Shown here one piece after another: positions 5,407-11,202 of a stretch of 24,296 nt of DNA. A model generated the notes under the pieces. It saw only the letters and a list, made by a program, of their open reading frames with translations. It made no database searches and had not been told where the DNA came from. Source of the stretch: a virus (Duplodnaviria > Caudoviricetes); IMG/VR virus record IMGVR_UViG_3300020017_000186, positions 1 to 24,296 of that record. The stretch is one strand, 5' to 3'. Each line of letters starts with the position of its first letter. The first letter of the stretch is position 1. Made by a program: the position numbers and the translations under genes.

Positions 5407-6681
5407 ATGCCCGAAGCTGCTGCCCCTCCCGCTCCTGCCCAACAGGAAGCATTCACCCCACTCCCCGTCCAGAACGATCCCTCCAGTGGATCAGCCAAAC
5501 CCATCCCACAGATTGATGTGGGGAAGGCTGCGGAAGGGGCCAGATCGAACAAGCCTGCTGGTTCAGGGATGGATGATTCCATGAGTGATCTGGACAAGAT
5601 GTTCGCAGACAATGAGCCCAAGGCAGAGAAACCCACTAGCAGGCCCAAGGAGGCACCGAAAGAGGAGAAGGTGGATACAACCCCTGCTGATGATCAGAAC
5701 GCCCCAGAAGCCAAGGAGGAGGCAAAGGGGGAGGATTATGGGGAGGATGCCAACGCGAAGGCTGGCAATGGGAAGCCTGTGTCTGCCCCGGAGTTGAGGA
5801 AGGCGTACGAGAATTTGAAGCGAGAAGTGGCTGAATTGCGGGAGAAGGCGAAGTCCAAGGGTCCATCTGAGGATGATCTGAAGACGTACAAGGAGCAGTT
5901 CGAGGCAGAACACACCCGCAGGACTGCGCTTGAGAAGGAATTGGCTCAGGCTGCGTACGAACGATCCCCGGAATTCATGGAGAAGCACGCTGCCCCGTTC
6001 AGGAATGCGTACCAGAAGGCCCGTGACCGGATCAGCAGCTTCAAGGTGACTGACAAGGATGGGAATGCACGTCAGGCATCCCCGGATGATTTTGATGCAA
6101 TCATGCAGGTGGGGGATGATATGGAGGCAGCCGTACTGTCCCGGGAACTGTTCGGTGACACGGTGGGACCCATTGTGATGATGCAGCGGGAGAAGGTGCA
6201 GGAATTGCACCAGGGGATGCAGGCAGCGATCAAGAGCGCAGAGGAGAACTTTGGCAAGAGTCAGCAGGAAAAGAAGGTTCAGTCAGAAATGCAGACTGCG
6301 AAGCTGAACAAGTTGTGGAAGACGTTGAATGATGGGGCTGCTGAGAAATATCCACAGTTGTTTCGTCCAGTGGAAGGGGATGAGAAGGGGAACGAACTGC
6401 TTCAGAAGGGGTACGAACTGGTGGATAGGGTGTTCATGGATGCGGAACAGATGAACCCCGAAGAGACGATCAAGCTGCACAGTCAGGTAAGGAACAGGGC
6501 AGCAGCATTTGGAAGACTTGTTCATCAGAACAGGCAGAAGGATGCGAAGATTGCGGAGTTGGAGAAGGCTCTTGAGCAGTACAAGGAATCAGAGCCAAAG
6601 AACGGAGAGGGGAGGATCGGAAAGAAGCCGGAAGCGGAACAGTACGGGGAAAATGCGTTGTCGAGGTATGTGGATCGTTAA
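5407..6681 (+). CDS. Capsid scaffolding protein
   Basis: Disordered Pro/Glu/Lys-rich N-terminus and long coiled coils; sits between portal and MCP. ATG at 5407. Confidence 0.65.
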   Translation: MPEAAAPPAPAQQEAFTPLPVQNDPSSGSAKPIPQIDVGKAAEGARSNKPAGSGMDDSMSDLDKMFADNEPKAEKPTSRPKEAPKEEKVDTTPADDQNAPEAKEEAKGEDYGEDANAKAGNGKPVSAPELRKAYENLKREVAELREKAKSKGPSEDDLKTYKEQFEAEHTRRTALEKELAQAAYERSPEFMEKHAAPFRNAYQKARDRISSFKVTDKDGNARQASPDDFDAIMQVGDDMEAAVLSRELFGDTVGPIVMMQREKVQELHQGMQAAIKSAEENFGKSQQEKKVQSEMQTAKLNKLWKTLNDGAAEKYPQLFRPVEGDEKGNELLQKGYELVDRVFMDAEQMNPEETIKLHSQVRNRAAAFGRLVHQNRQKDAKIAELEKALEQYKESEPKNGEGRIGKKPEAEQYGENALSRYVDR

Positions 6682-7106
6682 GATCGTCTGTGCTCAAAGC
6701 ATTCCAGTCCACTCCACTTGTTTGGTTGGGCAATCGTTGGTCGATTGAATTTTAGGCAGTCTCCGTGAAACCAGTTTGGTTGAAACGTAACGGTTTCAGT
6801 TCGTCCATCTGGAGTCTTGATTTGACTGCTTGATTTGTCAGCCAGTTTACCACGTTTGAAATGCTTGCAGTCATTACAGTCCGCATCAATCGTCTGGCAG
6901 GAAATCGCTTCATTCCGTTCACCAAGCTGCTTGCATTCACGATGGCATTGGAATGGATCGCGATTCCAGTATGAGAACGTGGTGACTGAAGATTCAGTCA
7001 CAGGAAGTCCACAGTATCTGCAATTGACGATTGCGCTGACGTGATTCATAATCTTCACTGCTGTTGGTATTGCGTTCATGTGACCGGATGATCTGTGGTG
7101 GGTCAT
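6678..7106 (-). CDS. Cys-rich putative metal-binding protein, last gene of the inserted cassette
   Basis: CRYC, CHREC, CNDCKH, GDC and C-terminal CFEHRR motifs; ATGA-type overlap with 7103-7639; its stop overlaps the scaffold stop. Confidence 0.65.
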   Translation of the reverse strand: MTHHRSSGHMNAIPTAVKIMNHVSAIVNCRYCGLPVTESSVTTFSYWNRDPFQCHRECKQLGERNEAISCQTIDADCNDCKHFKRGKLADKSSSQIKTPDGRTETVTFQPNWFHGDCLKFNRPTIAQPNKWSGLECFEHRRS

Positions 7107-7639
7107 CCGGTCTTTTCATTAGAACCGTTTGATTCAATCTGTCTCAGGCCAGACTTGATCGACTCTTCTGCCGTCAGCCTGCGCTTAGCTGCTTCTGTGG
7201 CTGCTTCCAGTGTAGCCATTGATCGTCTTGAAGTTGCCATCGCAAGGACTCCATGACTACTGAACTGAGCATGGAATTTGATTCGTTCTTCATTCGTCAT
7301 CTTGTCTGGATCAGCATCACGAACCAGCATCTTGCGAATTGTTCTACGTGCCATCTTGTTGATCCTTCGTGTCGCATCTGATCCTACCGTATGGAATTCC
7401 CCCGCAGTTAGTCTGCGCAAGCCTTGACCGCGAACATGAGCGAAATACTTTCCAGAATCCCGCTGAGTGATCAAGACAGCCCGCGACAGAACCCATGCGT
7501 GTTTACCGAACAGTAAACGGTTCGGGACCAGCGCAAGAATTGTTGCCTTTGGAATCAGTTCGTGATGCTCAATCGCGCTGAGGTATTTTGCGATTGTCAC
7601 CGAATCAACATTAGCCTGCGCTGGAATTTCTTGTCCCAT
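7103..7639 (-). CDS. Basic helical accessory protein of the RAMP cassette (possible nucleic-acid binding)
   Basis: 178 aa with VRGQGLRRL and Arg-rich RRINKMARRTIRKM; start codon directly follows repeat array C. Confidence 0.7.
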   Translation of the reverse strand: MGQEIPAQANVDSVTIAKYLSAIEHHELIPKATILALVPNRLLFGKHAWVLSRAVLITQRDSGKYFAHVRGQGLRRLTAGEFHTVGSDATRRINKMARRTIRKMLVRDADPDKMTNEERIKFHAQFSSHGVLAMATSRRSMATLEAATEAAKRRLTAEESIKSGLRQIESNGSNEKTG

Positions 7640-7645
7640 AAAAAT

Positions 7646-7780
7646 GAAGTGGTGTGGTGTGCGGTGTGATGACGTGGCTTGTTGGGCTGTGTTGTGTGAT
7701 GACTTATCGTGACGTATGATGACGTGTGGTGGTGTGCCGTGTTGTGATTTGGCTAGGCGTGGAGTGGCGTGACTTGCAGT
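7646..7780 (-). repeat. Pentamer array C, 27 units of CA(C/A/T)+NN (candidate guide RNA)
   Basis: + strand reads gaagt ggtgt ggtgt gcggt gtgat gacgt ggctt ... ggagt ggcgt gactt gcagt. The G-NN-D-T phase holds over 135 nt with only four deviant units. Confidence 0.9.
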
Positions 7781-7803
7781 GGAGAAAATCGTAAAATCAT
7801 AAT

Positions 7804-7878
7804 GATGTGGAGTGGTGTGTGGTGACTTGATTTGGCGTGCCGTGACTTGTCTTGAATTGCTGTGCCGTGTTTTGGTGT
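7804..7878 (-). repeat. Pentamer array B, 15 units of CA(C/A)+NN (candidate guide RNA)
   Basis: - strand: AC caa AA cac GG cac AG caa TT caa GA caa GT cac GG cac GC caa AT caa GT cac CA cac AC cac TC cac AT cat. Starts at the RAMP stop codon. Confidence 0.9.
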
Positions 7879-8438
7879 TAAATCTTTTCGAGCTTCACGA
7901 CTTCAAATCGGCCATTCGTGCCACCCTTCTCAGCACGGAACTGGCCCAGTCCGATGAACATACCCGCATGGTCCAAGTGTTCCCGAAGAACCTTCTCGTC
8001 AATCGCATCATCCAGCACAGCGATTGTGACGGTGGTCTTCCATGACATCAGTGTAGGGATGCAACGGGCAACTCGCTTGCCAGAGCCACGCAGTCCATCT
8101 GAGTTGGCATTGATCCAAATTGGTTTAGCATCCTTACGAGTAACACCAAGATCAGCATCTTCCATTACGAGCAATCCGCTCTCAAACAGCTTCGTGTAGG
8201 TTCGCTTACCCTTACCCGGAACCTGACGACCAAGATGCTTCGCGGCTGCGCAGATACAGAACTTCAAAGCCATTGCTGGAATGATGCACTTACCGGCCTC
8301 GTTTACACGAAGCTTTTCTGGGTAGCATCGAACCTCGAAATCTTCGTGGGTTTCACGGTCGGCGCGTTTGCTTTCAAATGGGGCACCGCCTCCAAGTGGA
8401 GCGCGGGATTCTAATGTGACTCGATATTTATTTAGCAT
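7878..8438 (-). CDS. Stand-alone RAMP/Cas7-like RNA-binding protein (Vipr-like), 186 aa
   Basis: N-terminal strand YRVTLESRAPL, IIPAMALKFCI (like the RAMP IPxxxxKG motif) and C-terminal Gly-rich loop AGMFIGLGQFRAEKGGTNGRFEV. Start placed at ATG 8438 because the upstream extension is repeat array and structured RNA. Confidence 0.75.
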   Translation of the reverse strand: MLNKYRVTLESRAPLGGGAPFESKRADRETHEDFEVRCYPEKLRVNEAGKCIIPAMALKFCICAAAKHLGRQVPGKGKRTYTKLFESGLLVMEDADLGVTRKDAKPIWINANSDGLRGSGKRVARCIPTLMSWKTTVTIAVLDDAIDEKVLREHLDHAGMFIGLGQFRAEKGGTNGRFEVVKLEKI

Positions 8439-8442
8439 GATG

Positions 8443-8522
8443 GGGATGGTGTGTTGTGGGGTGGTTTGGCTTGCAGTGCTGTGTGGTGTCTTGTCTTGAG
8501 GTGTAGTGTATTGGTTTGATGT
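8443..8522 (-). repeat. Pentamer array A, 16 units of CA(C/A/T)+NN (candidate guide RNA)
   Basis: - strand: AT caa AC caa TA cac TA cac CT caa GA caa GA cac CA cac AG cac TG caa GC caa AC cac CC cac AA cac AC cat CC. Ends a few nt before the RAMP ATG. Confidence 0.9.
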
Positions 8523-8526
8523 AAAA

Positions 8527-8635
8527 GGCCCGCTCAGGTGAAAGACCAGATCGAATGGGGCTGGTCCGGTTTCCCGGAACTGAGCGGACCAGAAAGTCCA
8601 ATTTGTCAGTCTTGCGCCATTCGACCGGCTTTCAC
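8527..8635 (-). ncRNA. c4-antisense-like cloverleaf RNA with upstream complementary sites
   Basis: Outer stem 8530-8537/8580-8587 and inner hairpins 8544-8549/8561-8566 and 8566-8569/8574-8577. The loop (8551-8558) and bulge (8538-8544) are perfectly complementary to 8617-8624 and 8629-8635. Confidence 0.6.
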
Positions 8636-8654
8636 ACCAGTCACGGACAGGCGG

Positions 8655-8683
8655 ACAATCCTTCATCACTGAACGTCTGTCAA
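8655..8683 (-). promoter_or_regulatory. Candidate sigma70-type promoter for the RAMP cassette
   Basis: Perfect TTGACA (8678-8683 on -), 17-nt spacer, weak -10 GATTGT. Confidence 0.35.
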
Positions 8684-8696
8684 ATTAAAATCTCTA

Positions 8697-8725
8697 TTGA
8701 CTTTACGTTAACGTTAACTGAAATT
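8697..8725 (+). promoter_or_regulatory. Candidate MCP promoter with palindromic operator in the spacer
   Basis: TTGACT at 8697-8702, TGAAAT at 8719-8724, palindrome GTTAACGTTAAC at 8707-8718; the same 13-mer recurs at 19023-19035. Confidence 0.5.
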
Positions 8726-8902
8726 CCCATTAGTTGAGCGTAATTGGCTCCCTCAATGGCCATCACCTTTCGCTTGGGGTGACATAAAAAATCAGGCAAC
8801 AGCGTTAGTGGCACGGGTGCCAGAAGGTCGCTGTTCTTCATTAAAATCCCCAACAGAATCCCTCTGCATTAGGGACAAAACTTTTAATGAAAGGCTCACA
8901 CA

Positions 8903-10237
8903 GTGGCCAACGAGAATATCAGTTGTGACAGTTTTACTCAGTTCCTCGTCGATCAATTGCCGGTTTATGATAAGTTGATTCTTGAGGATATTCGCCCGAT
9001 GGATGGTTGGATTGGGCATGTCAAGACGGGGACCTTCGAGGCTTATTCCGGCACAGAGCATACTCTGGACCGTTTCAACCATGTCTACCCAGATACGACC
9101 AAGGCATGGAATCGCACCACGGCGTCTAGTTGCGTCGGAACTCCTTGCGACAAAACGGAATACTGCATTGGATGGGGGGCCACTCGGATCACTTATTTTT
9201 TGGAGGAGCAATCTTGGGCGACTCCGCTTTTGTGTTTCGATCAGCTTATGCACATCACGAAGGCCCGTGAGAACTTCCGCTACATCATCGGTGGAATCCT
9301 CAAGCCTGCCACATCGACAATCATGTCGAACTTCCTCCGCCGTCGTGCCCTCACGATTGGCACAGGCAAGAAGTGGGTGGCTGATGCCAACATGACCGAC
9401 TTCACGGCCACCTGGGTCACTGTGGGCGATTCTGAACTGTACCTGGATGTCTCTGCTGAACCCACGTCTCGCCTGACTCCGCAGATGCTTCAGCGCCGTG
9501 TCAGTCCCCTGATGCTGATGGGCTACTTCGGCAAGACCCCGTTCAACGACAAGAAGGACATCCCTCTGATCGAACTGGTCACTGGAATGGAAACCTTGTG
9601 GGACCTGGACAAGCAGGTTTGTGATGCGAACATCTCCGGTGCATGGCGGTTCACGGAGTGGACGGCTGCCAATCAGTACTGGCGCTACGGGTTCAACGGC
9701 CAGCTTGGGAACTACGCGACTCGCGCAGACCCAATGGAGATGCGGTTCAACCGTGTTGGCGTCCAGCCGGGCGGGTTGATCCGTTTCCAGTTCATCCAGC
9801 CCTACATCAATGTCGCCTCCTCTGGGGCGGGTGGTGAACCGGGCTTGAAATCCATTGAGAATCCTGACTGGCAGGCTGCTCAGTATTCCATCAGCTTCAT
9901 CTGGCACAAGATGGCGATGGAAGCCTTGGTCTCTGACGCAACCCCTGTGAATCCCGAAATGCCGTTCAGTTCCCGCAACTTTGGTGGACGCTGGCAGTTC
10001 GTGAAGAACAACCTTGGGGCAGACCCCACGGGCTGTGTCATTGAGAACAAGCGCGGCAACAAGGGTCAGTTCATTGCTGACTTCAAGCTGGCGATCAGGC
10101 CCATGTACACGGAATTCGCCGAGGCCATTTTCCACAAGCGTCAGCGGGCCTGTGTCACTGTCTGCGATGTGTGCGAAGATGATCCGGGTTATCCGACTCA
10201 GGATTACAATTCGTGCAACGAAGTCTGCCCTGAGTAG
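8903..10237 (+). CDS. Major capsid protein (444 aa, GTG start)
   Basis: Size, position after portal and scaffold, strongly biased codon usage (C-ending codons, open antisense frame), upstream promoter and downstream hairpin. Confidence 0.75.
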   Translation: MANENISCDSFTQFLVDQLPVYDKLILEDIRPMDGWIGHVKTGTFEAYSGTEHTLDRFNHVYPDTTKAWNRTTASSCVGTPCDKTEYCIGWGATRITYFLEEQSWATPLLCFDQLMHITKARENFRYIIGGILKPATSTIMSNFLRRRALTIGTGKKWVADANMTDFTATWVTVGDSELYLDVSAEPTSRLTPQMLQRRVSPLMLMGYFGKTPFNDKKDIPLIELVTGMETLWDLDKQVCDANISGAWRFTEWTAANQYWRYGFNGQLGNYATRADPMEMRFNRVGVQPGGLIRFQFIQPYINVASSGAGGEPGLKSIENPDWQAAQYSISFIWHKMAMEALVSDATPVNPEMPFSSRNFGGRWQFVKNNLGADPTGCVIENKRGNKGQFIADFKLAIRPMYTEFAEAIFHKRQRACVTVCDVCEDDPGYPTQDYNSCNEVCPE

Positions 10238-10641: not shown

Positions 10642-11202
10642 ATGCCAATCGCTTGTGATCCAGCGTCACTTCGGGCTGAAGCTCACTGCATTTCAGCCTG
10701 CATTACGCATGGTCAGGCGATAGCGATCAAGTCACACCTTCTGGCACAGATCGCTGGTGGCAGCGAGAATCCCGGCACACTGCTCCAGGAAGCAGCCTGC
10801 TTCCTATGCCTCACCAAGCCTCAACTGTTTGCAATTCGCATCTACCTCTTGGCAGGACTGGCTGGGGTTGATCCTGAATCACAGGCAGTCATGGATGAAG
10901 CGTGTTGCCTGCTGGGATGCCTGACTGGTGGACAGTTGCGACTGATACAGATTTACATCCTGGCGACAATTGCCGGGGAAGAACCAGATGGGTCCCTACT
11001 TAATCCAGCGCAGTGTTTCCTTTCGTGTCTGATGGGAATCCAGAACGATGCAGTCCAGACGTACCTGCTGGCAGTGATTGCGGGTGGGTCAACCTACCCA
11101 CAGGAACTGGCAGAACTGGCCTGTTGCATCCTGACTTGTTTGTCAGGAGAACAGTTGTTGGCTGCTGAGACAGCCCTAATGTGCGAGTGGGCGAATGTAT
11201 GA
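10642..11202 (+). CDS. Cys-rich helical repeat protein (5 x ~37 aa), probable virion protein
   Basis: Repeated unit (D/N)P..L..EA.C..CL..GQL.AI..YLLA.IAGG. Confidence 0.7.
   Translation: MPIACDPASLRAEAHCISACITHGQAIAIKSHLLAQIAGGSENPGTLLQEAACFLCLTKPQLFAIRIYLLAGLAGVDPESQAVMDEACCLLGCLTGGQLRLIQIYILATIAGEEPDGSLLNPAQCFLSCLMGIQNDAVQTYLLAVIAGGSTYPQELAELACCILTCLSGEQLLAAETALMCEWANV

Follow-up and report, generated by a model that had tools for sequence, protein, structure and literature searches.

A tract of 5-nt units, each combining a constant triplet with a variable dinucleotide (NN), lies upstream of the major capsid gene in the viral record IMGVR_UViG_3300020017_000186 (Duplodnaviria; Caudoviricetes), which raises the question of what the dinucleotides encode and against whom they are directed. 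The window referred to below is the whole stretch analysed, 24,296 nucleotides in length. A preliminary description of this DNA had read the tract, array A, as a wobble-skipping code for a segment of the capsid gene and as a guide against the capsid genes of related phages.

A VIPR cassette upstream of the capsid gene

VIPR was described in 2026 from SUSP1 and, in its type II form, from P. fulva; as the text of these reports has it, each triplet takes up one protomer, the variable dinucleotides pair with DNA while leaving out every third base, and transcription is repressed (10.64898/2026.04.26.720920, 10.64898/2026.04.26.720927). The corresponding region of the window comprises the following features.

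7103..7639, minus strand: probable vap accessory gene, 178 aa; a homologue follows vipr in the sister phage L004 and in the CAC locus L028
7644..7783, minus strand: array B2, 28 units by unit parse, perhaps two guides
7802..7881, minus strand: array B1, 16 units by unit parse, scaffold as in array A
7878..8438, minus strand: vipr gene, 186-aa RAMP/Cas7-like effector, from a profile match and the model fold
8446..8520, minus strand: array A, predicted vrRNA, 15 NN-CAC/CAA/CAT units
8527..8590, minus strand: structured leader directly 5' of array A (z -3.4; conserved in kin)

The 186-aa gene encodes a stand-alone RAMP protein with an RRM, a thumb and a G-loop. A profile of 22 Vipr homologues matched SUSP1 Vipr (36pp_D) with an E value of 1.4e-8, and the model of the protein (pLDDT 91) has a fold resembling Cas7/Csm3. 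Class 1 CRISPR-Cas systems share this effector fold, but they combine a CRISPR array with multiple cas genes, whereas we found no CRISPR array or other cas gene in the window, a 24-kb fragment, and its code is gapped. As the text of the first reports describes for SUSP1, a single RAMP gene is accompanied by an accessory gene, and 5-nt units of constant triplet and NN lie on both sides of vipr on the gene strand; a 1-nt skip falling on the wobble base and phage targets are likewise VIPR traits (10.64898/2026.04.26.720920, 10.64898/2026.04.26.720927), the former found here for array A only. Unlike in SUSP1, a long tail after array A appears to be absent, and the decoded target is a kin capsid gene. 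We conclude that this is a VIPR cassette with an unusual CAC/CAA repeat.

Array A stops 7 nt short of the vipr start and B2 4 nt short of vap, with no Rfam match. The target match described below does not fix the strand of array A, because both strands, when decoded, lead to one DNA site; we infer a minus-strand RNA because SUSP1 arrays and the GGC/CGC arrays of the clade share the strand of vipr. The vap homologue was matched with an E value of 9e-9, and the 178-aa product in the window bears a weak winged-helix likeness; BLAST of the 178-aa gene against the gene that follows SUSP1 vipr gave no alignment. At 8366-8385, about residues 16-19 of Vipr, GGG replaces the SQS kept by most homologues, a change that may be linked to tolerance of CAA. 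A 14-pair hairpin with a T run (7082-7112) lies where vap meets the following ORF, which is Cys-rich (6678-7106).

The leader has a three-way-junction-like structure with an 11-bp closing stem, and equivalents occur in L007, L008 and L091. It is present in non-carriers too, where it is followed by an unrelated start codon or other genes. The leader marks the insertion point of the cassette, upstream of a variable gene slot. An Rfam search with the leader returned no match, and a promoter scan was uninformative.

Array A and the capsid genes of related phages

8903..10237, plus strand: major capsid protein gene, HK97-type fold, 444 aa from GTG, from the structure model and the nearest named Atlas clusters
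9188..9225, plus strand: own copy of the guide-A site, 22/26 match

All 50 matches listed in a structure search with the capsid model are HK97-type capsids or encapsulins, the best with Z 7.4 and rmsd 5.2 over 183 aligned residues for a model with a pLDDT of only 45. The named Atlas clusters nearest to the ORF are capsid families; Pfam/PHROG and PDB sequence searches with the protein were uninformative.

Read from 8520 to 8446 on the minus strand, the NN of array A are AT AC TA TA CT GA GA CA AG TG GC AC CC AA AC, set in CAA/CAC triplets with a final CAT. A 16th unit, CC, in the preliminary description lies beyond the last scaffold triplet, leaving 15 units; of the three closing units held there to be unmatched, AA and AC indeed do not pair, and CC is no unit of the array. 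Units 1-13 form the capsid code. With a 1-nt skip they match 9188-9225 on the plus strand at 22 of 26 nucleotides (10 of 13 dinucleotides), against 15/26 at the runner-up site in the window, and skips of 0, 2 and 3 reach at best 16, 17 and 18. The site is in the frame of the capsid ORF, with the skipped base at codon position 3. None of 2,000 shuffles of NN order reached 22 (maximum 20) for the 13 units, a cut picked post hoc once the match was visible; over all 15 units the self match is 22/30, which 2 of 2,000 shuffles reached. The code match of array A to the capsid gene is thus confirmed as real, as the preliminary description had claimed.

The four mismatched bases of the own site fall at a Phe codon (TTT; Tyr TAC in kin), a Leu codon (TTG; CTG in kin) and a Ser codon (TCT; AGC in kin). 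Searching IMG/VR with the 26-base guide-A pattern returned three exact matches, all better than the self copy and all in frame in homologues of the window capsid (88, 89 and 62% identical), where they encode ITYYLEEQSWATP. We also assembled 149 kin capsid loci from viral and metagenome collections (the metagenome part being the best 80 of 121), which yielded 112 distinct guide-A sites, the window included; four of the 112 listed match at 26/26. Across 4.19 Mb of kin DNA, guide A scores 26 with skip 1, against 14 with skip 0, 12 with skip 2 and 10-13 for six shuffles. No Vipr match was found in the stretches fetched around the 26/26 sites, and the two closest perfect-target phages are syntenic with the window but lack the insert at 6681-8522. 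The perfect kin targets and the neighbouring Vipr together support the proposal that array A is a guide against the capsid gene of related phages.

The sister phage L004 carries a Vipr 92% identical to that of the window, with the scaffold kept and different NN. Read with skip 1, and with no other skip, its array A points to this same motif of the capsid gene, displaced by five codons downstream, scoring 26 against 12-14 for shuffles in the 4.19 Mb of kin DNA. There is no perfect target for this guide among the 112 kin sites listed (best 30/32), and its self/non-self margin is thin, since its own site matches at 27/32 and the nearest kin site at 28/32.

The remaining arrays gave no comparable match. 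Eight-unit scans of IMG/VR, which for B2 covered its first half, returned 27 matches for B1 and 24 for B2, and none extends convincingly (best 25/32 and 22/32); against kin DNA (4.2 and 5.7 Mb), neither array exceeded its shuffles. The three B tracts of L004 likewise had no target above shuffles. Its B3 tract makes a borderline match to the kin phage L186 at 3802 on the minus strand, a site close downstream of that phage's GGY VIPR locus (nine units with one mismatch; score 17, shuffles up to 16). A near-copy of B2 occurs in a relative's contig (run X1, compared over 7641-7790), with 2 differences in 150; the vipr gene of this relative is about 89% alike and the sequence next to the B2 copy differs. 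Exchange of B2, or selection on it, may account for this.

Taking the decoded target and the neighbouring effector together, we consider it likely that this VIPR cassette, with array A directed at the kin capsid gene by a two-read, one-skip code, silences co-infecting kin. By analogy with SUSP1 VIPR, the minus strand of array A would be transcribed, one Vipr protomer would bind each CAC/CAA triplet, base pairing would take place between the NN and the capsid gene's template strand, and the filament so bound would block transcription. It is very improbable that the cassette is decayed or inactive and the capsid match a relic: the B guides have no found target and the SQS motif close to the Vipr N-terminus is no longer present in the window lineage, but the ORFs are intact, the sister phage retains the scaffold while its NN have diverged, and perfect targets exist in present-day phages.

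A Vipr homologue occurs in 6 of 40 kin records, and the carriers examined other than L004 have GGY arrays; two scaffold types therefore coexist in this phage group. Loci of the other Vipr clade, mostly with GGY arrays, include L186 (4147-4915), L128 (8851-9712), L143, L138, L191, L217, L232 and L286; some of the kin loci lie in the same slot, ahead of the capsid gene. Among the kin GGY guides that were parsed, two short ones exceed their shuffles. A guide of L143 (minus strand, 9128) matches L106 at 7775 and L111 at 2000 over 9 consecutive units (score 18, shuffles 12), and one of L186 (minus strand, 8612) matches L347 over 8 (score 16, shuffles 12); these are possible further kin targets of GGY guides.

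Own and kin capsid alleles

8965..9200, plus strand: capsid-gene segment common to two cassette carriers, set against their nearer non-carrier kin, from a permutation test

The text of a report on the SUSP1 family describes vrRNAs that target relatives, with a self match lower than the non-self match and a wobble alignment (10.64898/2026.10.15.759431). The targets given there are vipr genes, vrRNAs and satellites, whereas the target here is an essential structural gene of which the owner has a copy beside the cassette. Guide A could act on its own capsid gene, 670 bp away, as a self-regulator that dampens expression, the perfect kin matches reflecting motif conservation only. Consistent with this, the first guide of both carriers fits the adjacent capsid gene above shuffles (14 against a maximum of 12, and 17 against 13), guide A matches its own site at 85% over 13 units, and the L004 guide fits self about as well as kin. 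We nevertheless regard self-regulation as unlikely. Guide A matches kin exactly and differs from self at four positions, and the capsid segment common to the carriers adds mismatches. Over all 15 units the match is 73% to self and 87% to kin, on either side of the 80% cut applied in the text of 10.64898/2026.04.26.720920; a figure for mismatch tolerance was not found in the published VIPR text searched. Self-targeting was also sought in 22 records, where 8 of 140 tracts beat all 20 shuffles, about as expected by chance; only the two capsid matches are convincing, and no convincing self near-match was seen in the 20 other Vipr carriers.

We compared the capsid genes of five genomes, two carriers and three non-carriers. 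Over most of the gene the window clusters with L091, a non-carrier, whereas L008 (the L004 phage) falls with the non-carriers L006 and L007. Within 8999-9240, however, the two carriers group together, and the ratio of carrier-shared to vertical sites is 19:4, against 16:86 after it. The best carrier-shared segment, 8965-9200, was equalled in 0 of 1,000 permutations and has a GC3 of 0.59 and 0.54 in the carriers against 0.70-0.72. It holds the carriers' mismatches and ends inside the guide footprint, at the Leu mismatch.

An alternative reading is active self-escape, in which the owner's capsid would have been recoded at the Leu and Ser codons, silently yet visibly to the guide, under pressure from its own guide. 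Three of the four mismatched bases are indeed synonymous first- or second-position changes, as many such changes occur in only 5-8% of 13-codon windows, and the Leu change is where the carriers' segment ends. We find this reading doubtful all the same. Outside the footprint, Leu switches occur at 5-7 of 19 and Ser switches at 6 of 15 conserved sites (26-40%), which puts the odds of both near 0.1-0.15; among the 112 kin sites listed, TCN Ser occurs in 47 and Phe in 64; and 17 of the 19 carrier-shared changes are at wobble positions, which the guide ignores. The 22/26 of the window is itself ordinary for the family (53 of the 112 listed sites higher, 48 lower), and guide filtering against an already divergent allele explains the pattern equally well. 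The mismatches resemble escape, but such codons are common in kin, background switching is 26-40% and the site of the non-carrier L091 also matches at 22/26; recoding under guide pressure is therefore no more than a possibility. Linkage to a capsid allele is the stronger signal, although five genomes are a small sample. In the silencing model the owner would be protected by the four self mismatches, since the cassette and the nearby mismatched capsid allele would be inherited together. As the owner also needs the target gene, the natural pair of 26/26 and 22/26 sites makes self/non-self discrimination by VIPR directly testable.

Scaffold triplet and G-loop residue

Canonical type II VIPR combines a GGY scaffold with G-reading residues; the window combines CAC/CAA/CAT with Gln166 and Ile127. 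Gln166 (codon 7941-7943) aligns with SUSP1 Asp177 and Ile127 with Arg138, the two G-reading residues in the text of the SUSP1 reports, of which Asp177 is a scaffold contact (10.64898/2026.04.26.720920, 10.64898/2026.04.26.720927). The scaffolds given there are GGY or NNNGG, YNNNG and NNNNG forms. Purines in the third position of the scaffold are said not to be admitted by the SUSP1 pocket; the window lineage has A there in 15 of 54 counted units, six of them inside the matched stretch. An October 2026 preprint (10.64898/2026.10.21.760802, section 2.3) reports non-canonical GAC/NN and CAC/NN arrays beside Vipr-like folds; in its text as searched we found no decoded targets for the CAC/NN arrays and no named protein determinant.

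We collected 130 distinct Vipr proteins of the clade (the viral listings being the best 80 of 329 and the best 80 of 233) and called the scaffold on the gene strand in 108, leaving out the 22 without a called scaffold. The 108 listed loci comprise 52 CGC, 27 GGC, 10 GAC, 9 CAC, 7 CTC and 3 GTC scaffolds. The G-loop residue is Gln in 8 of 9 CAC loci and in 0 of the 99 others, Arg in 78 of 79 GGC/CGC loci, and Phe solely with GAC (6 of 10). The Gln/CAC rule held in 4 of 4 cases in the first set and in 4 of 5 against 0 of 54 in the later set, which was Gln-enriched by its search pattern and selected without regard to scaffold. This column ranks first by mutual information with the scaffold, and Gln corresponds to 4 changes on a quick tree, on which kind of tree the scaffold and independent-pair tests rest; supported branches carry just 2 independent pairs, a number that cannot reach significance. 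The association of Gln166 with CAC is a strong lead, not a result, and Gln166 may help to read a G-free scaffold. A thumb Lys/Arg reading the first scaffold base, also considered, agrees in 98 of 108 loci, but four further columns are better predictors and the independent pairs do not back it; we take it as kinship.

VIPR itself, wobble skipping, kin targeting, a lower self match and CAC/NN arrays are already in the published text. In the VIPR text searched we found neither a decoded target of a scaffold without G, nor a capsid target, nor a link between residue and scaffold, though figures and supplements may cover this clade. What our comparisons add are a natural target predicted for a G-free scaffold, a different guide in the sister phage on the same capsid motif, the capsid segment of the carriers and the putative G-loop Gln/CAC association. 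The match provides natural evidence that the VIPR skip code is independent of scaffold G, even across CAA units. Gln166 is a single residue to test and, if the association is true, natural systems could supply orthogonal silencing tools that are PAM-free. We tentatively suggest a wider picture in which the scaffold code is switchable (G-loop Arg with GGC/CGC, Gln with CAC, Phe with GAC, Thr/Ser with CTC), giving orthogonal systems immune to hijack by kin GGY guides, and in which guide and resistant capsid allele spread as a block, like a selfish drive, shutting down kin capsid production in co-infection.

Elsewhere in the window, 107-2214 contains two SAM methyltransferases and a DUF6492-like gene, and a Cys-rich repeated 186-aa protein (10642-11202) follows the capsid gene. 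Beyond the CAC loci, Vipr homologues lie beside GAC (L012, L013, L022, L376, L390, L394), CTC (L030, L041, L365, L393, L397) and GTC scaffolds (L017, L067, L370), with G-loop Phe accompanying GAC and Thr/Ser the cyanobacterial-type CTC.
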